This document shows positions 18,448 through 34,260 of a stretch of 37,188 nt of DNA, in pieces (position 1 is the stretch's first letter; every line of letters starts with the position of its first letter). This DNA comes from a virus (Duplodnaviria; Caudoviricetes), in the IMG/VR virus record IMGVR_UViG_3300020219_000034, positions 1-37,188 of that record; one strand, given 5' to 3'. The notes beneath the pieces are model-generated. The model saw only the letters and a list, made by a program, of their open reading frames with translations, was not told the DNA's origin and did not search any database. The translations under genes and the position numbers were made by a program.

Positions 18448-20058
18448 ATGGGCATCGGACCGTATCAGGCGCGACCCTACGACAACAGCCGCGGCATGTC
18501 GCGGATGGCCGACCTCGCGCTCCACCGAGGCGAGATCGAGGCCGAAGGCGCGCTCCGATCCGGCCAAGCGTGGGCGAGCGGCGTGCAGCAGGTCGGCCAG
18601 ATCGCCGGCAGGACGATGGCGGACTTGGCCGAGTACCAGGACCAGAAGCCGATCCGTGACGCCGAACGGCAGCGGGCGAACGAGTCCCTGCAGAACAGCC
18701 GTCGCAAAGGCGAGTTCAACGAGGCGTTGAAGGAGGCTGGGACCAGGCCGCCCGACGAGGCGATCGAGTTCTTGCGGACGCGCGGCTTCGCGCCTGAAGC
18801 GTCGGAGATGGCGAAGGAGCTGGCCGAGACGCGGAAGCGCGCCATCGACACCAGTGTGGCGAACCTCGCGCTGACCAAGGGGACCTTCGAACAGGCCCTC
18901 ACGTTGCTCGGCAGCGTGCGCGAGGCCCCGGACCCCGGGGCGGCCTACGCGCAGTCGCTCCCGAAGATCCAGGAGATGGTGGGCGCCGATCTCGCGCAGA
19001 ACCTCCCCAAGACGTACGACCCCGCGAGCCTCGACAGGGTGATGGCGTGGGGGATGTCCACGACAGCGACGCTCGACAACAACGCGAAGTTGCTGGCCCA
19101 GACGCGGACGACGTTCAAGGATGCGGCCGACCGCGAGGATCACTTCACGAAGTCCCTGAGCCAATATCTTCCCACCGTGACGACGGCGGCCGACTGGACG
19201 GCCGGGCTCCGCTCGGCCGAAGAAGCCGGCGCCCCCAAGATCGCGCTGGACAAGTTCGCGGCCACCTACTCGCCGGAGGCCGCGGCGCGGGCCGCACAGT
19301 TGACCCAGCCCCGCCGGGCAGACGCCCCGTTGGGGAGCGCCGCGGACATCATCGCGGGCGAACAGACGCGTCTGGGCCGGGATCTGAACACGGACGAGAA
19401 GCTGGCGCTCGTGCGCCGGCAGGGCACCGCGGATCGCGCGCCGAGTACCGCCGGTGCCGGCGGCTTGACGCAGGTGCAGATCAACGCCGCGACCGGCCGC
19501 CGAGACACCGCGATCGCGGCCCTCAACCGGGAACGCCGCGACGCCGACGCCACGCTCACCGACGACATGTACGGCGACGAGCTCCACCGCATCGAAGCGA
19601 GCTACGCCCAGCAGATCGGCCAGCCGCCGCCGCCGCCGCGCCTTGGCGTGCAGCGCGGCGAGCCCGGCGCCCAGTCGTCCGCCGAGATGTCCTTCGAGGA
19701 GCAGCAGAACCAGGACTCCACCAGCATGGCGGACCTCGCGACCGCCCCGCCACTCCGCGCCGCCGGGGGCGGGGCCCCACGCCGGCTACCCGGATTCCCG
19801 CAGAGTGACCCCTCGAACGCCGCCGCCCCGCCACCGGCGCGGCCCTCGGCGCCCCTCGGTGCGGCGCCCGCCACCGCCGCGCGTCCGCCGGCTCCACGGG
19901 CGCAGGCGGCACCGCCTTCGGCTTCCGGCCAGATCACCGTCCAGACGCTCCCAGACGGCAAGTTCGCGGTGAAGCTGAACGGTCAGCGGATCATCGCCAA
20001 GAGCAAGGCCGAGCTTGACAAGTTCCTGAAGGCCAGCGGCTACGAGATGTCGAAATAA
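18448..20058 (+). CDS. Putative DNA ejection protein (helical, Pro-rich linker, small C-terminal domain)
   Basis: GAGG RBS; helical Ala/Gln composition; directly precedes the giant gene. Confidence 0.7.
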   Translation: MGIGPYQARPYDNSRGMSRMADLALHRGEIEAEGALRSGQAWASGVQQVGQIAGRTMADLAEYQDQKPIRDAERQRANESLQNSRRKGEFNEALKEAGTRPPDEAIEFLRTRGFAPEASEMAKELAETRKRAIDTSVANLALTKGTFEQALTLLGSVREAPDPGAAYAQSLPKIQEMVGADLAQNLPKTYDPASLDRVMAWGMSTTATLDNNAKLLAQTRTTFKDAADREDHFTKSLSQYLPTVTTAADWTAGLRSAEEAGAPKIALDKFAATYSPEAAARAAQLTQPRRADAPLGSAADIIAGEQTRLGRDLNTDEKLALVRRQGTADRAPSTAGAGGLTQVQINAATGRRDTAIAALNRERRDADATLTDDMYGDELHRIEASYAQQIGQPPPPPRLGVQRGEPGAQSSAEMSFEEQQNQDSTSMADLATAPPLRAAGGGAPRRLPGFPQSDPSNAAAPPPARPSAPLGAAPATAARPPAPRAQAAPPSASGQITVQTLPDGKFAVKLNGQRIIAKSKAELDKFLKASGYEMSK

Positions 20059-20061
20059 GCC

Positions 20062-23000
20062 ATGCCGACCCGCCCACTTGACCCGTTCGACGTGGCTCGA
20101 TCGATGGGACTCGCCGTCGAAGACGACACGCCGACGCTTGAGACGCACGACCAGGACTGGCAACGCCAGTCGATCCTGGCTGGCACGGCTGAGATGCGCC
20201 CGCCGACGCCGCGGCCTGCGGCGCGGACGCCGCGTGTGGACCCGTTTGATGTGGCCAGGACGATGGGACTCACCATCGAAGAGGACACGCCAGACCCCGA
20301 CCCGTTCGATGTGGCTCGATCGATGGGGCTCACCATCGAAGAGGACACTGATACACTCTCGCTAGATGCCGCGCTGCCTTCCGGGCCGACTCGTGCCGAC
20401 GATCCTCGCCGCGCTCTACCTGCTGCTGGTGTAGACGAGCCGACGTTCCAGGCGTGGTACGGCCAGCGCGCCAAGACGCTCGGCCTCGACCCCAACCCCG
20501 ACGCCCCCGAGCAGTCCTACGACTACCGCGCCGCCTTCGCGGCCGGCGCCGAGCCAGGGCCGGACGGCCACTGGCCATCGGCGTTCAAGAAGCCCGGACA
20601 CCCCAACGAGGTCGTGGGCGGCTTCAATACCCGCACCGGCGCGCGCGTGCCTGGCACGCCCCGCGCGTCTCGAGACGATCTCGTGCGCCTGGGCTGGGAA
20701 CCGGACGCGGCGGCCCGTCTCGACGCGACCCAGGAGCCGAGCGCCGCCAAGTCGATGGGCGACATCATGGGCCAGGCGACGGGCATCAGCCGCGCCCCAG
20801 AGCCCCGTGGCGCCCTGGGGACGTTGGCGGACTTCGGCATGTCCTTGCCGCGTCGCCTTGGCGTTGACCCAGTCATCAGCGCGGTGAAGGGTGCCATCGG
20901 CGCTGTGAATGTGCCGGTGGGATTGGCGGACATCGCGACCGGCGGTCGTGTGGGTCAGTTCCTCGAAGAGACGATCGGCTTCCGCCCCGCCGAGGCCACG
21001 AAGATCCTCTCGTCCTGGTATTCCAAGAAGCAGCGCGAGGGCAGCGCGGCCGTGCAGGCGGCTGATGGTGTGCTCGCTACCGCCGTGGCCGCACTCTCGA
21101 ACCCCGGCGTGGTCGCAAACACGGTTGTCGAGTCGGCGCCCATGATGCTGGCAGGGGGGGCTATCGGTCGCGCTATTCCGTACGCGAGTGCCGGTGTACG
21201 TGGCGCGCTCGGGGAGGGCATCGCCTCTGCCGGGAGCGCGGCTTCACACACCAGGGAAGGTTCCGAGGATGGCCGTCTCACGGTGAAGCAGTCCGCCCTC
21301 GCCGTCGCGACAGGCGCGGCGACGACCACATTCGGCCTGCTCGGCAATCGCATCGCGCAGTCGCTCGGTATCGCCGACATCGACACCATGATCGCCGCTG
21401 GTGCGGCCAGTCCTGTCGCCGCTCGTGGGCTGGCTACGCGTGTGGCGCTCGGCATGGTGCAGGAAGGTGTCCTCGAAGAGCTGCCGCAGTCGATCTCCGA
21501 ACAGCTCTTGGCGAACGTCGCTCAGGACCGACCGATCCTTGAAGGCGTGGACGAGTCCGCCGTGCTCGGCCTGTTTTCCGGTGCTGTGATGGGCGGCGGC
21601 GCGAACATCCGCCGTCCTCGCACGGCCGCCGGCGCCCCGCCAGCGCCGCCCCTGGCCGACCTCGCATCAGAGGCGCCGCCGGCCGGCCCGTCACCCGCTC
21701 CCGTCGACGTGCCGCCGGTGGCTCCACGCGGAGCGCCGCCCGCGTACGTGCCGACCGACCTAGAGACGCGCAACGTGCGCCGGCTGATGGCCGAGCCCGG
21801 CCGCACCACGATCAGCATCAACGATGTGAGCAGCGCCACGGCCATGCGCCCGCGTGAGGCAGGCGCCGCGATCGACCAGCTCGAGCGCGAAGGGCTTGTC
21901 ACTCCGACGTCGCAGGCGGGCACCTACACGCTCACGCAGCCGGCGCCAGCCGCAGAGGCACCGCCCGCGACGATGCGCGACGCCCTCGGGCCGCTGCCGC
22001 CAGGAGTGAGCGCCGAACAAACGCAGCAGTTGACGGCGCTCGGCTATGCGCCTGAACGCGTGGCGGCGATGACGCTGCCCGAGGTGCAGGAGGCGCTCCG
22101 GACGGGCACGCCTGCCGTGGAGCGGCGTCAACAGCCCCGCGGCCTTGTCGCCCCAGCCATCGCTGACCCGATGAGCCCTGAAGGGCTTGTGGCGCTTGGC
22201 ACGGAGTTCATGGAGAACCCTGCGCGGCAGGCGGATGTGGCGTCGATGCGGACGGCCACGCGAGCGGAGGCCCCGCCGAGAGAGGGCCGAGCCGAGTCGG
22301 AGCAGCGTGACCTGACCAATACGAAGGTTACGGACCACACCGGGGCGCCGATCGTGGTCTATCGCGGGCGCGATAGCAGCGGGACCGGGCGTGTACGTTC
22401 CGGTGCCGCCTATTTCACGGCAGACCAGACCGCCGCACGGCAGTACGCCGACGAGTATGGCGGGGACGTGCTGGCGGCACGCTTGTCCCTGACGAATCCG
22501 GCACGCGACACCGATATACGCCGAGTGGCCGCCACCGCAGAGATCGCCCTAGTTGACGACGGCCACCCGGTGGCATATCTCGACCAGAACACGGCATTGC
22601 GTGACGCGCTGGTGGCGGCCGGGTACGACGGGGCCATCGGGAACGATCGCCGGTTGGACGACCAGGGTGACATCACGTCGTACGTCGTGTTCGCGCCCGA
22701 CCAGATCGTGCCCGCAGATGATGCCAAGGCTGGACCATCAGCGCCGGAAGTGCTCGACGCCGCGCCGGAAGACCGCCAACGTGTCGCGGGCACACGTCCT
22801 GAAGTCCTGGACCGGGAACGTCCTGACCTCGGCATCGACGCGCGAGGCCAAGAGATAGAGGCGCAGGAGCCCATCCCGCGCCAGTCCTACGAGGACGACA
22901 CACGCTGGGAGGACTGGAAGGCGGGCGACACCCTCAAGCTCGTGGATGGCCGTATCGTCACCGTGGCTCGGGCCGCGGCCGATCCCTTCTCCGGTCTTCA

Positions 23001-26000
23001 GGTCACGCTCGACGGTCGTCGCTGGTCCGTCAACCAGGAGCTTGTCGAGGGGCGGGTGGATGCGGTTCCGACCGCGGCCACTGTCGTTGACGACGCCGCC
23101 ACGGTGGACGCTCGCGGCCTACCCATCGCGCCGAGAGACGCCGGCGTCATTCCGGCGCGCATGGCCGTGAAGTTCGCCAACGCCAGCAAGGGCGCCATCG
23201 AGGTGTCGACGCTCGTGGAGGCGAAGCGGGCCGCGCAGACACTCCAAGCTCAGCGAGACGACAACGGCCCCGGCGCCGGTCGGCTGCCCGTGATCTCCAT
23301 CATCGACGCTGAGACTGGCGAGCAGTTCGCCGTTATCTCCCCGAACGGCCGGATCTGGCGACAGGCCGCGGGGAAGAAGTGGACCCCGGCCACGAAAGAG
23401 ATCGATGCCAGCGTGGACGTGACGCCTGCTGCGGACGCCCAATCCCAGCCAGGCCAGTACGTCAAGCACCCGCTCATCGTTGACGGCAAGGAAGTGGGAC
23501 AGATCCTCGGCCGTCTTACCGCGCGCGGACGCGTGAAGGTCGTATCAGCAGGGCTCCCAGGCACGGTAGAGATGTCACTCGGCATCGGCGACATCGTTGA
23601 ACGTGATTCGTCCTGGCTGACGGTCCCAAAGAGCCAATGGCCCGGCATCTGGGAAGACGGCGAGCGTGTCGAGTCTTCCAAAAGCCTCGCAAAGGACGTC
23701 GCGGATGACGGACGGGCGCCAAAGACGATAGACCGGCCGACGCTTCGTGGCGCTCCCGCGCCAGTGCCGGACCCCAAGCCCGCCGCGGAGATGACTGACG
23801 AGGAAATGGCGGCCGAGATTCGCGCCCGGTTGACGCGGGAAGCGGAGGCCGAGGCGCCGGTCGCGAAGCCTACCAAAGGGGGCCCGCCGCGGAAGACGCG
23901 CGCGCCCAAGGCTGACCCCGCCGAGACGCAATGGGCGGAGGTGCTTGCGTCGGCACGCGCCGTGGACCCGGACGTCGACGAGACGGACCTGCGGGACGAG
24001 TACGACTTCCGCGAAACGCGAGCCTGGGACGAGGCGAAGGATGCCGCCGACGCCGGCACGCTGGTGCTGCTCAAGGAAATCGCGTCCCTGGGCGGCCTCC
24101 ACGAGAAGCAGGGCGGACAGGTCGAGGAGCTGTTCCGGCTCCGTCAGGGGCAGGCGTTCGGGGCGGTCGGCGGCGTCAGGGGCGTGCTCTCGATCGACCC
24201 GAAGCGTGGCCTCGCGCTCGACGACATGCTCGATCAGTTGCGCGGCGATGGCCGCTTCAATCAGATCGAGACGACCGACGACATTCTCGAGTTCATCAAC
24301 ACGGTCCAGATCAAGGGCGTGCCCAAGCCCACGCCGTCGCTCACGGCGCTCGGCGTCACTCCCGCGACCGCGTGGTGGAAGAATCGCCAGCGGCCCGAGG
24401 CGGACCCGGATGCAGGCTTCGCCAACGACAGCGTCGACCCCGGCAAGGGCGACATCAGCTTCGACGGAGACGCGGCCCCAGCCGCGCCTGACGTCGCGCC
24501 CACGGACGCCACCACGGCCCCTGGCGTCTGGGCGCCGTTCGCGATTGCCCGCGGGACCGAGGTCCAGATCCGGGACAACACGGAACGCGCGTCGATAGAA
24601 CTCAAGTTCGACGGCAAGCCGGACGAGACGGTGCGGGCGGCGCTCAAACGGGAGGGGTTCCGATGGTTCGGCCCCTCCAAGACCTGGTATTCCAAGGCGA
24701 AGGACCGACGGGCACGGGCTGAACGCGCACTGAACGTCACGCCCGCGCCGGCCGCGCCGGCCGCGCCCGCCGAGCGTCCCGTGTCGTCACAGGACGCGCC
24801 GGTCACGCTGATCATCAAACCGCTGTTCGGATCTGACGAGACGAGCACGGTCACGGTCGGCGGTCCCGCCACGACGTGGGGCCATGCGGCGAAGATGTCG
24901 CCAGGCGCCGAAATGGACTGGTGGGCGAACGCTACTGAGGAACTCGGCGCGGTGCGCGCCAGGGCCGGCGCCATCGGTGCAGGCGTCGTCCTGCGCGTGG
25001 ACAGCGGGAGCTTCACGCGCGTCTTGGTGTTCGAGCCCGACAACGGCGGGGGCCGGCAGGTCAAACTCGGCGCCGCGCAAGTCGAACCCGCATGGCGCGA
25101 CGGCAAACTCGTGCCGGAGCAGCCGCGGGAGGCCGCGAAGACGCCGAGCAAGACGGGAAAGCCCCCCACGGCCTGGGACGCAATCGGCACCAACGCGGTT
25201 GGGCAGACCATCTACGAGGATGAGCGCGGCGTGCGCTCGTACGTCGAGAACGGCGTGCGGCAGACCGAAGCGGTGGCGCTGGCGCCGACGCGCGGCGGGA
25301 CATCCAGAACTGGACCGACGCCACGGTCCTCGAGCCGGGCGACCGACTGGACGCTGCTGAAGGTGCATCCGTCCGTGGTCGACACGCGCGCCGACCTCGC
25401 CGAGGAAGCCGGCGCGCAGCAGCGCATCGCCACGAGCCGCGCCGAGTCGCAGGCCGCCAGCAAGGCCGCGCTCGCGGAGAAGAAGCCGGTCACGCCGCAG
25501 ATCACGCCCGCCAGGGCGCCAGACGCCGCCGCCGCCGCGCCGGCCGTCGACGCCAAGGCCGCCGCGCGCGCCGCGCGCCGCGCCGCGGTGCAGGGCGAGA
25601 TTGACTCCGCCGTCGCCGGCATCAAGGCCGAGCTTCGCAAGTCGGGCTCGACGCTGAGCAGCGGCCTGCCGGTCCCCTCTGACGTGCTCTTGGTGCAGAC
25701 GGTCAAGCTCGTGCGCGCCTACACCAAGGCCGGGATCATCGACGCACAAGAAGGCTGGGAGAACTTCCAGGAGGATCTCGGCGCGCTTGCGGCGCAGGCT
25801 CGCCGGGCGTTCACGATGGCCTGGGGGATGGTCCACGGCGTGGCCGAGCCCACCCTTGCGGATCTCGGCCCGCAGGCGCAGACTCAGGGAGAGGCACCCA
25901 ATGACGCAGCCCGCGAAGATACCGCCGCCGCCGCCGATGAGCCCGCAGGCCAAGGAGATGGCCCGCCAGATCCGCGTGGACGCACTACAAGCGGGGATGA

Positions 26001-29000
26001 GCCCGGATCAGGCGAGGGAATTGGCGGCGTACACGATGACGCCGGCCGACCCCGAGGATCTGACGCCGTACGAGGGACCGCTGGAACCGACTACCGAATA
26101 GCCGACGACGAAGCGGTCGGCGCCGGCACGCCCTCGGTCAAGATCCGCAATAACCTGGCGGCAATCGCGCTACTGAAGCAGATCGAGGCCGAGCGCCGCG
26201 ACGCCACGCCAGACGAACAGACGATCCTCGCCCAGTACGTCGGCTGGGGCGGGCTCAATGAGGCGTTCCACTACGGCACCAAGACGTACACGGCGCTCCA
26301 AGAGGCGCTGACCGACGAGGAATACGGCGCCGCTCGCGCGTCCACGCCGAACGCGCACTACACGTCGGTCCCGGTCGTGCGCGCTATGTGGGCCGCCGTG
26401 GAACGGCTCGGCATCACCAGTGGCCGCGTGCTCGAGCCGTCGATGGGCGTCGGCAACTTCTACGGGGCGATGCCGGATGCGCTGCGCGCGTCCACGCTGC
26501 GCGGCGGTGTGGAGCTCGACACCATCACCGCCCGCATCGCCAAGGTGTTGTACCCCGAGACGGACGTGCAGGCGCGCGGATTCGAGTCCGCCCGGCTCCC
26601 GGACGGCTTTTTCGACCTCATCATCAGCAATGTGCCGTTCGGGGACTATGCCGTCCATGACTCGGCGTTCCGCGGCAGGCCCAAGGCGCTCAGGTCGTCC
26701 ATTCACAACTACTTCTTCGCCAAGGCGCTCGACAAGACGCGCCCTGGCGGGCTCGTGGCGTTCATCACGTCGCGCTACACGATGGACGGCAACACGGCCG
26801 AACATGCGACTGTCCGCGACTATCTCGCCACGCACGCGGACCTGATCGGCGCGGTGCGACTCCCAGACTCCGCGTTCAAGGCGAACGCGGGCACGGAAGT
26901 CGTCACTGACATCCTCTTCCTGCGTCGGCGCACCGCGGACCTTCCTGCGAAGGGGGAAGCATTCACACGGTTGGCCGAGAGCGGCGTCGAAGACCCCAAC
27001 AGCGGCCAACCGATCAAGATCAACGAGTACTACGTGGCGCACCCCAGGATGGTCGTGGGCCTCCACACCGCCGACGCCAAGATGTGGCGCGGCGGCGGCT
27101 ACAACGTGAAGCACGAGGGGGGCGACTTCGAGGCCGATCTCCGCGCGGCGCTGAACCGATTGCCAGCCAACGCCATCACCTACGACGAAACGCCGACCAA
27201 GGCCGCCACTGAAGACGCCCGCCGCGAGTCGGTGCCGGCCCCGGAGTTCGTCAAGCAAAATGCCTTCGTCCAGCAGGATGGCCGGCTGTGGGTGAAGCGT
27301 GGCGACGAGATGGAGTCGGTAGACGACCTCCCCGACGCCACCAAGGCGCGGATCGTCGGCATGATGGGCGTGCGCGGGGCGGCGAGGTCCACCATGCGCG
27401 CCATGCTCTCGCCCGAGGCCACCGACAGCGCGATCGTTGCCGCGCAGAAGACGCTGAACACGGTCTACGACGCCTTCGTCAAGAAGTTCGGGCACCTGAA
27501 CGACCGTGCCAATGAAGAGGCGTTCGACGAAGACCCGGATCTTCCGCTGCTGATGTCCCTCGAGAAGACCCACGGCCAGGGGAAGCCGCCGACCAAGGCC
27601 GCTATCTTTACCAGGCGCACGCTGTCGCCCCGGAAGGACGTCACGTCGGCCGAGTCGCCAAAGGAGGCCCTCCTTGTCTCGCTGAACAACACCGGGCGCG
27701 TCGACCTGTCGTTGATGGCGCGGTTGACCAGTCAGTCAGAAGACACGGTTGCGGATGCGCTGGCGGGGATCATCTACCAGACGCCTGGCGGCGTGTGGCT
27801 GACGGCCGACGACTACCTGTCTGGCCCCGTGCGGCAGAAGTTGGCCGAGGCCGAGGCCGCGGCAAAGATCGACCCCAAGAAGTTCCAGGCGAACGTCAGC
27901 GCGCTCACCGCGGTGCAGCCGACGGACCTCGCGCCGGTGGACATCGACGTGCGGCTCGGGTCGGCCTGGGTTCCCCCCGAGGTCTACAGCCAGTTCGTGA
28001 CAGAACTCCTCGAAGTCCGTAGAGACGGCTTCCGCATCACCTATGCCGCCCCGCTGGCGGCGTGGAAAGTCGACCCGACCTACGCCAAGGGCACCAAGAA
28101 CACCGCCGCCAATGAAACCAGGTGGGGCACCCCGGAGATCCTCGGCCACACGCTGATCGAAGAGGCCATGAATCTCAAGCTGCCGACCATCTACCAGAAG
28201 GACGGCGAAGGGAAATCGTCGGTCAACCAGGAACGCACCGTGGCCGCGCGGGAGAAACAGCAGGCCATCAAAGACGAGTTCGCCAAGTGGATCTGGAAGG
28301 ACACCGCTCGCGCCACCATGCTCGCGGACATCTACAACCGCGACTTCAACAACCTCCGGCTGCGGTCCTACGACGGGTCGCACTTGCAGTTGCCCGGGAT
28401 GTCCGCCGAGTTGACGCTGCGACCGCACCAGAAGACCGCGATCTGGCGCGTGCTGCAGTCCGCCAACACGGGACTCGGTCACGTCGTCGGCGCCGGGAAG
28501 ACATTCGAGATGATCGGCGCGGCTATCGAGTTGCGCCGGCTGGGGATGTCCCGGAAGCCGATGATTGTGGTGCCGAACCACCTTGTGTCGTATTGGGGCG
28601 CGGAAGTGCTGCGGATGTATCCCACGGCCAACGTGCTCGTGGCCACCAAGGCCGATTTCGCGGGCGGGCAACGCCAACGCTTCATGTCGCGCATCGCCAC
28701 CGGCGATTGGGACGCCGTCATCGTGGCCCATCGGTCGTTCGAGTTCCTGCCGATCTCAGACGAGGCGTTCAACGACTACTTGAAGGACCAGATCGCAGAG
28801 TACGAGAGCGCCATCGCCGACGCAGCGGCCGCCACCGGAAAGAAGTCGGCGAGCGTGAAGCAGATGGAGAAGGCGAAGAAGAACCTCGAGGCGCAGATCC
28901 GCGACCAGCGAGACGTAGAGGACCAGGACAAGACGCTGACGTTCGAGGAACTGGGCGTGGACAGCCTCTTCGTCGACGAAGCGCACATGTTCAAAAACCT

Positions 29001-32000
29001 CCAATTCGCCACGAAGATGACGCGCATCGCCGGCCTGCCGACCACGGGCTCCGATCGCGCCTTCGACATGCGCTTGAAGGTGCTGCACATCCAGCGCCTC
29101 AAGGGCCGCACCGTGTTCGCGACCGGCACGCCGCTGAGCAACACGATGGCCGAAATGTTCACGATGCAGCGGTACCTGCAGCCGGACGACATGCGCGCGT
29201 CGGGCATGGCGCACTTCGACGCCTGGGCACAGCAGTACGGGTCGGTCGTGGTGTCACAGGAACTCGCCCCCGAGGGCACCGGCTACCGCTCGCGCACCCG
29301 CTTCGCCCAGTTCTCGAACCTCCCCGAGCTGCTCACCATGTTCCGGCAGGTGTGGGACATCGTCACGGCCAAGGACGTCAAACTTCCCACGCCGAGAATC
29401 AAGGGCGGCACGCCGGAAGTGGTCGCCGTGGAGCCGAGCGCCGCCATGAAGCGGCTGATGCAGAGCCTTGTCGTGCGTGCGGCGGCGCTCCGCGGAGAAC
29501 CGGTCACGGTCAACGGACTGACCTTCACGCCAGCGAAGCCCGATGCCAAAGACGACAATATGCTGATGGTCACAGGGGACGGGCGCAAGGCGGCGCTCGA
29601 CATGCGGCTACTCGGCCTGGGCTCGCCGCTCGAGGCGTCCACGAAGGTGCGTGCGGCCGTCACGCGCATCTCGGACATTTACAAGGCGAACACGCGCCGC
29701 AAGGGCGCCCAGCTCGTGTTCCTAGATCAAGGCACGCCAGGAAAGAAGAAGGGGAAAAGCTTCAACCTCTACGCCGACTTGCGCGATCGGCTCGTTCGCG
29801 ACGGTATCCCGCGCGACCAGATCGCGTTCATCCACGACGCCAAGAGCGACGACGACAAGCTCGCGATGGTCGAGAAGGTCAACACGGGCGAGGTCCGTAT
29901 CCTCATCGGGTCGACCGAGAAGATGGGCGCCGGCATGAACGCGCAGAAGAAGCTCGTCGCGCTCCACCATCTCGACGTGCCGTGGCGCCCGTCAGACATT
30001 GAACAGCGCGAGGGGCGGATCATCCGCCAGGGCAACGAGTTCTACGACGCCGACCCAGAGGGCTTCGAGGTCGAAGTGCTCCGCTATGTCACCAAGGAGT
30101 CCTTTGACGCCTACTCGTGGCAAACCCTCGAGAGCAAAGCCAGGTTCATTGAGCAGGCCATGCGCGGAGACATCACGGTCCGCAGGGCCGACGACGTTGA
30201 TGGCGGCGCGCTCACCTATGCCGAAGTGAAGGCGCTGGCGTCCGGCAATCCAATGGTGATCGACAAGGTGAAAGTCGATGCCGAGTTGCGGAAGCTCGAG
30301 TTGCTGGAATCCGCGCACAAGCGGGAACGGTGGCTCACCCAGCGGGAGGCCAGCGACCTCCCGGAACGTATCGAGGGAATCACGCGGACGCTGGCCGGCG
30401 TCAAAGCGATCCTCGCCGCCCGCAAGATCCCGGACACGTTCACCATGACGATTGGCGGCACGACGTTCGACAAACGAGACGAGGCTGACAAGGCGTTTGT
30501 CAAGGCCACCGACAGCGCGCCCCAGGTCGCCCGCGTCATCGCCACCTACGCCGGGCTGAACATCAGCGCCAGGCGATACAGGGGCGAAGGCTCGGGCGGC
30601 ACGACAGTGAACATCCTATCGGTGTACTACGGCACAGGCAGCCACCGCGAAGACACCGGCGACACCGTGCGGTCGATTGAGTTCTCGGTGAAGCACCGCG
30701 TCGAGGAACGGATCGACTCGCTCGAAAACGAATTGCAAGAGGCGCAGAAGAAGAGCGCCGACGTGGCGGCGTTGCTGGCGGAGCCGTTCGGGAAGACGGC
30801 CCGCATGGCCGAACTCGTCATCGAACAGAAGCGGCTGGCCGCGTTGCTGAGCCTCGACGTCAAGAGCCAGACGCTCGCCTCAGATGTCGAAGACACTGGC
30901 GGCGCCACGACCGGCACGTCCGAAGACGCGGCCATCGGCGTGTTCGCCCAGAGGAATCCCAGCCAGCGTGTGAGCCTGCCCGTGGCGCTGGTGCCAGTGC
31001 GTCAGGCGGCGCCACTCGCGACGATTCAGGGCGATGTCGCACTACCGGAACTGGTGATGTTCGCCCGCGAGCTTGCGCGCGACGTGCGCGTAGTGCGCGG
31101 GTTCCGCAACGCGCTGTCGGGGGCGAAGCACCGATCGGGGCACCTGATCTTCACCGCGGACCTGTTCAAGCCCGAGAACGTCGGGCAGTTGGCACAGATC
31201 GTCGCCCACGAAATAGGCCACCTAGTGGACTACCTCCCGACCATGACGATGAAGCGCGGCAACGTCCTCGGACGGCTGCGAACGCTCCACCGCTTCATGA
31301 AAGCCAGCTACACCGACGCTGATGGGCGCACCGTGACCAACCTCAAGGTGCGGAACGAACTCAAGAAGCTCTCCGCTGCATGGCGCCCCTGGCCGGACGC
31401 CCACGACGAGAAGTACCGCGCCTACCGGGACAGCGCCAAGGAGCTGTACGCCGACGCCATCAGCGTGCTGTTCAACAACCCCGAGCAGTTGAAGTGGCAC
31501 GCGCCGACGTTCTATCGGGAGTTCTTCGCCAACCTGGACCAGAAGCCTGACGTCAAAGCCGCCTACTTCGGGCTGCAAGAGCTGCTGTCTGGCACACGCG
31601 AGGAACTGATCGCCCGCCGCCGTCTCGGCGTACAGGGGATGTTCGCTGAAGCGGACACGAAAGCACTCGACCTCGAGGCGTTGCGCCAGGCCGAGCGCCA
31701 GAAGGCTCGCGGGGACTTCGCCTACCGAATGCGGCTCGAGCTTGTGGACAAGAACATCGCCGTGATCGACCGCATCGAAGCGCGTGAGGCGCAAGGGATC
31801 GTGCAGAACCCTGACGACGATGCCCGCTACTTCCTCAAGGAAATGCGCCACCTGGGCGCGAAGCAGCACGGGTTCCTCAACCGCACCTTCCAACCGATGA
31901 AGGACACCCTAGAGGCGGCCGGCGTCTCGTGGAGCCAGTTCGGGGAAGCCCTGATGTATGCGCGCATCGCCAGCGGCGACCGCACGGACATGGCGAACCC

Positions 32001-34260
32001 ACGCGGCCTGGACGTGGCCGCCGTGCCGGAGATGCTGGCGGCCGTCCGAGCCGAGCTGACCGACAAGGGCCGCACGGCGCTCGACGCGGCGCTCGCCAGC
32101 TTCCGCGCCGCCGTTAAGGGTGTCTCCAAAGACGCGTTCGACGCCGGGCTTTACACGCCCGATCTCTACGAGAAGATGGCGGAGAACCCGGCGTGGGCCG
32201 CGTTCCGCGTCGTGGACTACATGCACAAGGACGTGACCTCGACCGTGCATCACCAGATCGGCACGGTGAAGGACATCCAGAACCCCGCGGACGCGACGAT
32301 CCTCAAGTTGCTCGTGACCATCCGGGCCACCGAGTTCAACAAGATGAAAACGGCGGTGTTCGCCTCGATTCCGGACGAGTCCACGCCGGCCGTCATGGGC
32401 TTTGACGGCAAAGGCATGAGCCCGAAGCCGCCCGAGGACGCCGCGCTCGAACTTGTGGAATACCGAGAGAAAGGGCGGCGCAAGGGCATGTATGTGCCCA
32501 AGGACGTGGCCGTTGCCATCAACAACGAGAGCATCGGCGGGAATCTTGCGGTGCTCGAGGCCGTGCGGTTTGCCAACGCCAAGTGGTTCCGCCCGGTGTT
32601 CACCGGGATCAACCTGTCGTTCCAGGCCGCGAACCTCCTCCGCGACTTCCAGCGGACGTGGATGAACACCCCTGGCGCCACGCTCGGGAGCACTTTGAAG
32701 TACTACGCCAAGGCTGTGCCGCTGGCCCGGCAGCGCGCGTTCGGGCCGAGGGCGAAGCCCACCGCCAAAAACCTCGCGGTGGCGAAGCTGCTCGCCGACG
32801 CGACCGAGGCGCGCATTCTCGGCGTGACCATGAACGACCTCATCGCGGGACGGCCGAAGGAAGACAGCCTCGTCGAAGAACTGTTCTCGCAGCACGGCAT
32901 CAAGCGCGCGGGTCCGCCAGCCACCGGCCTCACCGGCCCAGTCATGGAAGTGGTCGACCGCGTCGAGAAGCTCGGCAACTTCATCGAAACGCTCCCCAAG
33001 GCCGCGAGCATCTACGAGATGACCTCGGACGGGCGCCAGATCAGCGACCTCGACGCGGCCGAGCGCGCCTTTATCCGCGAGAAGGTGGGCAGTCCCGATT
33101 TCCTGATCGGTGGCACGCTCAAGCCCATCACGAACGAAGTGGCCCTCTTCTCGAACGCCATCACGCAGGCGATTCGGGCGGACTATGCCATCGCCACGAC
33201 CAAGGGCACCCGCGCTCCGTTCTGGCGCAAAATGGCCGCAGCCGTGATGGTCCCCACACTCCTGACGTTCGCGATCGAGCATCTGCTGGGCGACGATGAC
33301 GACGACGACACCGGCTGGGGCTACGTGCGGCGCATCCTGCGTGGCGTGAGCGAGTACGACAAGACCAACTTCTACATCATCCCGAGAGGGCTGGACGAGC
33401 ACGGCAACAGCCGCTACTGGCGCATCCCGCGATCGGACGCCGGCCGGTTGATCGGCGGCGTGCTCCGCAAGGGGCTGCTCGCGGCCGGCGGCGAGGTCGA
33501 GGTACTCCAGTCAGCCGCGACCGTCTTCGACTACATCACGGGGCAGGCGCCGGGCCTCACGCCGAGTCTGGGCGTTCTGGCTGATACCGGACGGTTCCTG
33601 TCCGGCCAGAACATCTACGACGACTTCCGCAGCCGCGAAGTGTTCAGCCGGGATGAGATGGCGCTGCCGCTGCCCGAGCGCGCCAAGAAGTTCATCGGCT
33701 ACGAGATCCAACAGGTCGGCCCGAGCGCCATCGGCCGGTTCATCGCCGGAGACGCGCGCCCGCGCGACCTCACCACGGGGCAAGTCCTCCTCGAGATGAC
33801 GCCCGTCGCAGGCCGGTTCTATCGGATCTCGAACTACGGCCTGATCGAACGGCTCCGCAAGGCCCAGAAGCCCGTGCAGGCGTCCGAAGCGCGCAGCCGG
33901 CGGGCCGAGACGGCGGCGGTCGCTGGCGCTGTGCAGGCGTATCTCAAGAAAGCGCCCCCGTCGCGGACCCAGGCCGCGCAGGAAACCCTGGCGCGCAAGG
34001 TCGTCAAGGAACTCTACGCAGACCTTCCCCAGCGCGAACAGGACGAGCAGTTCCGAGACGTGAAGAAGAAGATCCGCATGGGCGCGGCCCGTGGCGGTCA
34101 CGACCCAGTCACCACGGCAGTGCTGAGCGCCCAGACCACGGCCCAGCGCGTGGCGATCATCGCCGAAGCCTTCCCGTCGGCCGCACGCCGTCGCGCGTGG
34201 GTCCAGCGCGCGGTGCAAGAGAAGGTCATCACCAAATCGGTCGCGCAGGCGGCACAATGA
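20062..34260 (+). CDS. Giant polyvalent internal virion protein (4732 aa): repeats, membrane-like segment, ART-PolyVal-like domain, DarB-like N6-MTase + SNF2 helicase, zincin HExxH, LPD38-like C-terminus
   Basis: [11 protein letters not shown] (26428-26460), NVPF (26629-26640), GHVVGAGKT (28477-28503), DEAH (28975-28986), [17 protein letters not shown] (30001-30036), HEIGH (31207-31221); position of the largest ejection protein. Confidence 0.92.
20080..20349 (+). repeat. Three copies of DPFDVAR(S/T)MGL(A/T)(V/I)E(D/E)DT at the N-terminus of the giant protein
   Basis: Copies start at 20080, 20239 and 20299. Confidence 0.95.
20349..20357 (+). promoter_or_regulatory. Internal extended -10 element TG-A-TACACT (leaderless-type)
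   Basis: TGnTAnnnT pattern ending 8 nt before the nested ATG at 20366. Confidence 0.45.
20366..20434 (+). CDS. Nested +1-frame hydrophobic peptide [22 protein letters not shown] (22 aa)
   Basis: 20 of 22 codons end in G/C in this frame; 13 of 23 end in A/T in the host frame (hand count); promoter-like element upstream. Confidence 0.45.
25856..25884 (+). promoter_or_regulatory. Internal sigma70-like promoter TTGCGG-N17-CAGACT
   Basis: Canonical 17-nt spacing; immediately followed by a GGGAGAGG RBS and the nested ATG. Confidence 0.5.
25901..26101 (+). CDS. Nested +1-frame gene (66 aa) overprinting the linker before the MTase domain
   Basis: GGGAGAGG RBS 6 nt upstream; 55 of 66 codons end in G/C versus about 35 of 67 in the host frame (hand count); helical protein-like core [27 protein letters not shown]. 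Confidence 0.72.

Follow-up and report, generated by a model that had tools for sequence, protein, structure and literature searches.

The 37,188-nucleotide viral stretch analysed here (IMG/VR record IMGVR_UViG_3300020219_000034; hereafter the window) contains a giant gene for a DarB-like polyvalent protein and, inside it in the +1 frame, a 66-codon open reading frame (ORF) that very probably is a real, translated gene. Sequence comparison places its product, which is not an orphan, as a divergent half-length member of a large TnpV-like four-helix family. In relatives, conservation follows the nested frame, and the small protein is predicted to dock just past the methylase core of the giant protein. 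The mechanism that we prefer, with a probability of about 0.45, is that of a bound off-switch, made from the same transcript as the giant protein and left behind at packaging. The features on which this reading rests are the following.

20062..34260, plus strand: giant DarB-like polyvalent protein gene, 4,732 amino acids (ORF list, Pfam, PHROGs).
25901..26101, plus strand, +1 frame relative to the giant ORF: nested gene, 66 amino acids, putative shortened TnpV-like protein (codon switch, family profile).
25888..25894, plus strand: Shine-Dalgarno-like GGAGAGG, 6 nucleotides upstream of the ATG, at the codon-preference crossover.
25900..26100, plus strand: host-frame linker, amino acids 1947-2013, rich in G/D/A/R/P, likely the overprinted frame (composition; host-frame selection in relatives).
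26092..27100 (end approximate), plus strand: LPD36-type helical domain (GWGG motif at 26242-26253) and adenine methyltransferase core (Pfam, motif).

A first-pass annotation of the letters alone had claimed a shift of codon preference into the +1 frame, and all its motifs, positions and hand counts were reproduced: TTGCGG at 25856, CAGACT at 25879 after a 17-nucleotide spacer, GGGAGAGG at 25887, the ATG at 25901 and a TAG ending at 26101, with G or C in the third position of 55 of 66 codons in the +1 frame versus 35 of 67 in the host frame. The shift proved to lie far beyond chance. When a codon model was trained on 13 gene stretches of the window, none of them from the overlap, the nested ORF received log-odds of +10.4 for the +1 frame compared to −20.9 for the host frame. 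Across the remaining 4,531 segments of 66 codons in the giant gene, the +1 frame never rose above −9.1, the host frame never fell below −4.4 and the former never beat the latter, which makes the nested ORF the sole place in the gene where codon usage switches frame. The crossovers, at about 25870-25900 and 26050-26080, correspond to the ends of the nested ORF. The codon adaptation index (CAI) of the host frame over the overlap is 0.32 (minimum elsewhere in the giant gene 0.37), that of the nested frame 0.61, within two standard deviations of the phage genes (0.71 ± 0.06). An open +1 frame is uninformative by itself, being left open by 95.5% of synonymous recodings of the host peptide; the observed +1 codon score was reached by none of 20,000.

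The sequence GGAGAGG followed by an ATG occurs once in the giant gene. On the Shine-Dalgarno scale used, the window site scores 4 and most relatives at least 5; a Shine-Dalgarno match of at least 5 nucleotides precedes 100 of 113 non-redundant nested genes versus 225 of 4,786 out-of-frame control ATGs, the first figure being inflated by the choice of the best of several starts per gene. The codon switch and the position of this site at the crossover support the claim that a real gene is nested here and has a ribosome-binding site of its own. Other delimitations were rejected: a second in-frame ATG at 25937 has no Shine-Dalgarno sequence, a longer ORF opening with TTG at 25787 shows the codon usage of the host frame until 25901, and codon scores mark the remaining +1 and +2 ORFs of the giant gene as non-coding. 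Nor is translation generally coupled to a start inside the host frame, a host-frame ATG lying within 30 nucleotides of the nested stop in just 12 of 124 genes.

The same annotation had given the small gene its own promoter, which we could not establish for the window copy.

25856..25884, plus strand: possible sigma-70-type promoter TTGCGG-N17-CAGACT, weak (background-level score; post-hoc rule).

A consensus promoter scan did not pick up this element, and its score of 6 was equalled or exceeded in 55 of 101 control segments of the giant gene. It is favoured solely by a positional rule written after seeing the data (TTG, 16-18 nucleotides, xAxxxT ending 14-22 nucleotides before the start), which is satisfied at the site itself, at 10 of 2,000 other positions of the giant gene, and in 5 of 56 relatives versus 292 of 11,200 controls; stronger elements of this geometry precede the small gene in loci L003, L054 and L060. 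A near-consensus host-type promoter just upstream of the small gene was found in 5 of 56 relatives compared to 7 of 926 control segments. We regard this promoter as possible.

A direct homologue search with the 66-residue peptide gave no match. The viral scan returned its own record together with two weak matches, both of which were rejected and neither of which lies at a locus with a methylase match, and a further viral scan for closer phages returned the window's own record alone. Relatives were instead found via the methylase, 80 loci in each of three collections and 240 in total (L001-L240); the confirmed stretches numbered 181, 571 and 546, of which the best 80 were taken each time, the second and third collections having been scanned in part. 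Many are near-duplicates, and the number of distinct nested genes is 124. A family profile was grown from +1 and +2 segments, the window locus never being included. It was matched by 70 of the 79 other viral loci, always in the +1 frame, 63 times directly before the methylase and 7 times farther upstream, and in seven of the nine non-matching loci a +1 segment with a weak score occupies that position. The host frame contains no stop between the small gene and the methylase in any of the 70, and in 65 it also stays open for at least 100 codons upstream; of the other five, four run off the contig and one is interrupted by a stop. A six-frame scan of homologous giant genes, as proposed by the first-pass annotation, gave a nested +1 member upstream of the methylase in most: 170 of the 240 loci had a profile match, in 160 of these it was in +1 and the host frame ran without a stop as far as the methylase, and many of the 70 loci without a match have short flanks.

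On this profile the window peptide scored 15.7 bits, with a single-sequence P of 7e-7 and an E of 0.0015 over the 647 six-frame segments of the window. It was the best of these segments, and none of 2,000 shuffles scored as high (maximum 8.7). The match spans profile positions 46-74, the C-terminal half of the family, where the peptide carries the helix - G-x5-A-x-E - helix hairpin as GMSPDQARE and retains the invariant A and the near-invariant E. The N-terminal W/Y-x4-P-x2-Y-x2-L-x3-G helices are absent from it, and the other reading frames of the window hold no remnant of them; locus L010 has a member of comparably reduced length, preceded by a strong Shine-Dalgarno sequence. Among 20 proteins scanned, 4 of the 17 at the family position scored above the Pfam TnpV cut-off. 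One profile joins the window peptide and Pfam-passing TnpV relatives, which upholds the TnpV likeness suggested by the first-pass annotation.

The family is large: a profile search of 1.84 billion representatives gave 6,757 clusters at E ≤ 0.001. In cultured phages, 21 records from 12 phages matched, and the small gene is annotated separately in none of the 21. Burkholderia phage JC1 and Ralstonia phage Gerry carry it too. In Sinorhizobium phage PBC5 (AF448724.1; L250:1-4309) a frame change before the small gene splits the giant gene, so that the small gene becomes the C-terminus of orf33; this may be a sequence error or a natural fusion. Six loci (L058, L066, L069, L072, L074 and L080) have a divergent nested +1 family at the same position (IANRWMxGWP ... 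HLARHEIAELYG), weak on the TnpV-like profile.

Selection was compared in both frames among relatives, using 93 pairs of at least 70% identity with at least 6 differences, of which 18 are disjoint. Over the 18 disjoint pairs the ratio of nonsynonymous to synonymous differences (pN/pS) was 0.31 for the nested frame compared to 1.83 for the host frame that overlaps it, with 0.12 for the methylase, and the nested value was below that of the host frame in 17 of the 18. Conservation thus follows the nested frame, as the first-pass annotation had predicted for a real inner gene. The host-frame value above 1 is the expected shadow of inner-frame constraint rather than positive selection. Locus L081, a near copy of the window, has an 18-nucleotide in-frame duplication in LPD36 (window 26311; L081:2721-2738) and 22 substitutions upstream of 25901, with no substitutions over the nested gene or downstream of it.

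To place the family outside phages, TnpV loci were taken from five gut genomes chosen for having the methylase. Of 36 TnpV matches 30 were fetched, 18 of them free-standing and 12 nested in a long ORF; six of the 17 free-standing loci scanned lie after a serine recombinase gene. Because free-standing relatives exist and the nested frame is under purifying selection, the small gene is, as far as sequence comparison can tell, most likely the older frame and the host linker the overprint. This reverses the earlier description of the small gene as overprinted. In a classical overprint the inner gene would be narrower and less constrained; here the inner family is broad and the outer frame unconstrained. 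The window linker resembles in composition the host frame of the 124 non-redundant nested relatives, which is rich in G/A/D/E/P/R/S.

The closest locus for modelling was L002, with a methylase 62% identical to that of the window. Its full-length small protein was predicted as four helices (7-19, 21-29, 33-53 and 58-69; predicted local distance difference test, pLDDT, 83.5), all helical and without strands. The AlphaFold2 model of the window peptide corresponds to the last two family helices, at residues 15-30 and 35-46, with a pLDDT of 95 over residues 21-40. Two regions are needed for what follows.

25943..26038, plus strand: predicted helix-turn-helix hairpin, nested codons 15-46, holding the predicted binding helix at residues 19-36 (AlphaFold2, alignment).
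27259..27585, plus strand: domain after the methylase core, amino acids ~2400-2508, whose L002 counterpart is the predicted docking site (complex model mapped via alignment).

A complex was modelled for the L002 pair from 760 residues of the giant protein, LPD36 onwards and excluding the helicase lobes, and 90 residues of the small protein, with paired alignments of 58 rows. The interaction prediction score from aligned errors (ipSAE) was 0.68, the best of three controls reached 0.00, and the partner pLDDT was at least 80; three runs shared at least 87% of contacts. Of 157 solved complexes 116 reach the ipSAE mark, compared to 2 of 215 mismatched pairs; these rates are a rough guide here since our own alignments were used. 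No solved chain matched the methylase-module profile at E ≤ 0.001. The predicted site is a helical domain after the methylase core, outside both LPD36 and the core, and corresponds to amino acids ~2400-2423 and 2480-2508 of the window protein. On the small-protein side residues 2-11 and 42-59 make the contacts, the latter being residues 19-36 of the window peptide, and the part retained by the window peptide accounts for 23 of the 25 best contact pairs. On the strength of these models we regard binding of the small protein to the giant protein as likely. The first-pass annotation had taken the small protein for a partner of the methylase-helicase, as chaperone, inhibitor or immunity factor; the partnership gains from the predicted docking of the closest-relative pair.

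The charges at this interface were examined in 27 short-type pairs (34 less 7 in a different register; 24 long-type rows were left out). The giant protein of the window is the only one of the 27 with a net acidic docking patch (E2485, E2486, D2489), opposite R22 and R25 of its small protein, and its own pair scored +4 for charge, compared to at most +2 with the 26 other partners in either direction. This hints that the short peptide has kept pace with its partner in charge. Long and short types of the small gene also cluster with the methylase in a quick tree, but linkage explains this clustering, and it was set aside as evidence of co-evolution.

Foldseek against the PDB had no match at E ≤ 0.001, and no Xis-like chain was among the matches listed in two PDB fold searches. 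The one good BFVD match is probably PBC5 orf33, containing the small gene in frame. The best solved fold match of the family model was DUF1896/PG0816 (Pfam PF08989, PDB 2APL), at a Z of 6.2 (next 4.9), which lies within the range reachable by common helical arrangements, with a root-mean-square deviation of 2.1 over 61 residues. Its sequence likeness to the family is weak (E 0.48; profile-profile E 0.0024, probability 12%), neither the window peptide nor the scanned family proteins had a DUF1896 Pfam match, and the G...A-x-E hairpin is common to both. In 3 of 81 genomes of a Bacteroidota order DUF1896 was found, with a methylase gene directly downstream in two and the contig end in the third. 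Unlike the nested small gene, DUF1896 of Bacteroidota conjugative elements is free-standing and longer (about 145 amino acids), and the likeness may reflect a mere common helical arrangement.

In the mechanism that we prefer, the small TnpV-like protein would be made from the +1 frame via its own ribosome-binding site. Coming from the same late transcript as the giant protein, it would be present whenever the enzyme is made, and would dock just past the methylase core, likely holding the methylase-helicase inactive in the producing cell. Packaging and injection would take the giant protein alone, leaving the small one in the cell, and the freed enzyme would then protect the incoming phage DNA. 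As to origin, an older two-gene cassette of small gene and methylase-helicase may have been fused to upstream virion domains by read-through in another frame, and the window lineage may later have lost the two conserved N-terminal helices while keeping the binding hairpin. That the small protein acts as an inhibitor of the giant protein is, by our estimate, a proposition somewhat short of even odds.

Several observations weigh against it. The family match of the window peptide is limited to about 30-38 residues, and the peptide has neither a Pfam TnpV match (E ≤ 0.1; cut-off 27 bits) nor a PHROG match. Loci L081 and L001 are identical to the window over the nested gene (L081 is 98% identical in the methylase), so that selection was demonstrated for relatives only. 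No nested gene is present in the fetched stretches of P1 darB, Thermus phage Lalka27b or a Streptococcus SNF2 gene, the last of which nevertheless has the docking domain. No methylase-helicase was found among the neighbours scanned within 1.5 kb of free-standing TnpV genes. The charge signal is modest (43 for the native pairs and 30.8 ± 5.2 for shuffled ones, with 119 of 10,000 shuffles as high and no correction for kinship); slid controls reached a z of 1.75, and a slide of +3 likewise scored the window pair +4. The acidic docking patch of the window copy argues against simple masking of a DNA-binding surface. Finally, the results presented here fit an inhibitor and a chaperone or loader alike.

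A folding chaperone, packaging aid or loader acting at the same site, into the capsid or onto element DNA, is accordingly the main rival, which we judge unlikely. It shares the evidence from nesting, selection and predicted binding. Free-standing tnpV on mobilisable elements could, moreover, recruit the enzyme of a helper element. The family serves virion packaging and conjugative transfer alike, which speaks against a loader; we know of no loading machinery that the two have in common. The near-consensus promoter before the small gene of some relatives also suggests expression apart from assembly. Phage P1 adds a point in favour of the rival, having no nested gene in the 1,128 darB codons fetched and using Ulx for DarB localisation (PMC9024508, Table 1).

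It is improbable that, within a real family, the window copy is a decaying remnant whose codon bias is a fossil and whose peptide is non-functional. The loss of the N-terminal helices, of which other frames hold no trace, the low family score and the identity of the nearest copies over the gene would agree with such a remnant. They are opposed by the Shine-Dalgarno sequence and ATG at the codon-preference crossover, by a nested CAI near that of phage genes where the host CAI is lowest in the gene, by the retained A and E, by charges that fit the own giant protein best, and by the strong Shine-Dalgarno sequence of the short L010 member.

We also consider it improbable that the small gene is an expressed passenger independent of the giant protein, for instance an early anti-defence gene or an Xis-like recombination accessory. 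Xis has a winged-helix fold, from which the all-helical model seems to differ, and phages and conjugative elements alike retain the small gene in front of the methylase, with binding predicted. The six tnpV genes after a serine recombinase gene favour the passenger, as does the Xis postulate for TnpV repeated in PMC3158075, the sole function for TnpV that we found in print; the Tn4451 recombinase, however, works without a directionality factor according to PMC5704250. A ribosomal frameshift out of the giant ORF into the +1 frame, which would yield a shorter virion protein with the TnpV-like module at its C-terminus, is highly improbable: the PBC5 GenBank record, possibly in error, has the small gene as the in-frame end of orf33, but its close relative Atu_ph08 has the ordinary nested layout, and where the small gene begins, both Shine-Dalgarno sequence and start codon are conserved.

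The preferred off-switch can be set beside known systems. TnpV itself (Pfam PF14198, of Tn4451-type mobilisable elements) has Pfam-passing relatives in the nested position and 12 of 30 canonical loci nested in a giant ORF; from it the window peptide differs in keeping the C-terminal hairpin alone and in lying in a phage virion gene instead of beside a recombinase. TnpV fusions to other domains were idiosyncratic and without functional clue. In comS within srfA-B, as here, a small gene lies inside a larger one in another frame. The embedded Rz1 within Rz of the spanins is also a same-strand small gene wholly inside a larger one in another frame, with cooperating products (PMC9144972). Compared with Rz1/Rz and comS, the inner gene is likely the older one here, the outer frame is a disordered linker from domain fusion, and the products are unrelated. 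Ulx of phage P1, which 'Aids DarB localization' (PMC9024508, Table 1), is a small DarB-linked accessory likened to the small protein by this description, but it is a separate virion-borne protein. In the open literature covered, no account was found of a TnpV gene lying inside one for a methylase-helicase, and the main text of PMC5512222 contains neither TnpV nor overlap.

These results offer a testable function for TnpV, a very common mobile-element gene whose one printed role that we found is a doubtful Xis analogy. They name a candidate regulator of DarB-type anti-restriction enzymes together with a surface to test, and describe a natural, widespread and selected gene-in-gene arrangement overlooked in public phage records. 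They also suggest read-through as a route by which giant polyvalent proteins are assembled, and the window copy narrows the functional core to one helical hairpin. Tentatively, one may go further: TnpV, DUF1896 and the nested genes could form one superfamily of controllers of DarB-type methylase-translocases, polyvalent genes growing by read-through that entombs the partners in the +1 frame behind disordered linkers. Free tnpV of mobilisable elements would then switch off or hijack the helper enzyme, and the window phage would display a minimal, sufficient hairpin of 30 residues with charges swapped on both sides of the interface.

The genome setting is that of a P22-like podophage segment, with terminase, portal, scaffold-like (our reading from gene order), coat, adaptor, head-closure and DNA-ejection genes, the giant ORF, and tail and lysis genes. 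The giant gene lies downstream of the portal, coat, head-closure and DNA-ejection genes of this virion module (ORF list, Pfam, PHROGs), and the putative packaging of its product in the virion, where it would protect DNA from restriction, rests on that position. Two further domains were located in it.

22333..22722, plus strand: ART-PolyVal ADP-ribosyltransferase domain (Pfam E 1.7e-9, above cut-off).
28459..30033, plus strand: SNF2-type helicase/translocase (Pfam SNF2-rel_dom, amino acids 2800-2982, below cut-off; Helicase_C, amino acids 3253-3324, above cut-off).

A DarB-like dyad has been defined as LPD36 with a GxGU motif together with an adenine methylase and an SNF2 helicase, in polyvalent proteins (PMC5512222, section 14). 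The giant protein has all of these in one chain, with GWGG in LPD36 and NVPF, an NPP(Y/F)-type motif, in the methylase; a Pfam Eco57I match at amino acids 2181-2262 lies below cut-off. P1 DarB and other LPD36-methylase-SNF2 polyvalent proteins thus resemble the window gene, which has these domains and ART-PolyVal in a virion module; unlike it, the fetched stretch of P1 darB has neither a nested gene nor a match to the docking-domain profile. At the N-terminus of the giant protein (window 20062-20360) are three copies of DPFDVARxMGL, perhaps a packaging or processing signal. The 536-amino-acid gene upstream (18448-20058) scores weakly on the small-gene profiles at residues ~84-129 (E 0.05 and 0.003 among 647 segments), probably by chance helical likeness.

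Across loci L001-L240, all 134 codon-shifted, Shine-Dalgarno-bearing nested ORFs (duplicates included) are +1 ORFs situated upstream of the methylase, with none in these loci in +2 or within the methylase or helicase. A second nested +1 class encodes charged products of 49-65 amino acids (L012:1274-1471, L015:1319-1486, L014:1325-1474 and L175:1752-1910), with two related ORFs (L023:1793-1984 and L075:1841-2029); five of the six have a GGAGG-type Shine-Dalgarno sequence. In four loci this class comes directly after a region of the giant protein with a zincin-like HEFxH peptidase motif, and it is possibly a peptidase inhibitor or immunity gene. In L022 and L024 the TnpV-like gene is closely preceded by a +1 segment, ~360-480 nucleotides upstream of the methylase, that carries a CxAFPxGIP motif; we take this motif to be one of small genes adjoining ADP-ribosyltransferase toxins. 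Phages JC1 (L242:2613-2801) and Gerry (L246:1193-1372) have another Shine-Dalgarno-bearing +1 ORF of ~60 amino acids inside the DarB-like gene, similar in both and with a weak codon signal.

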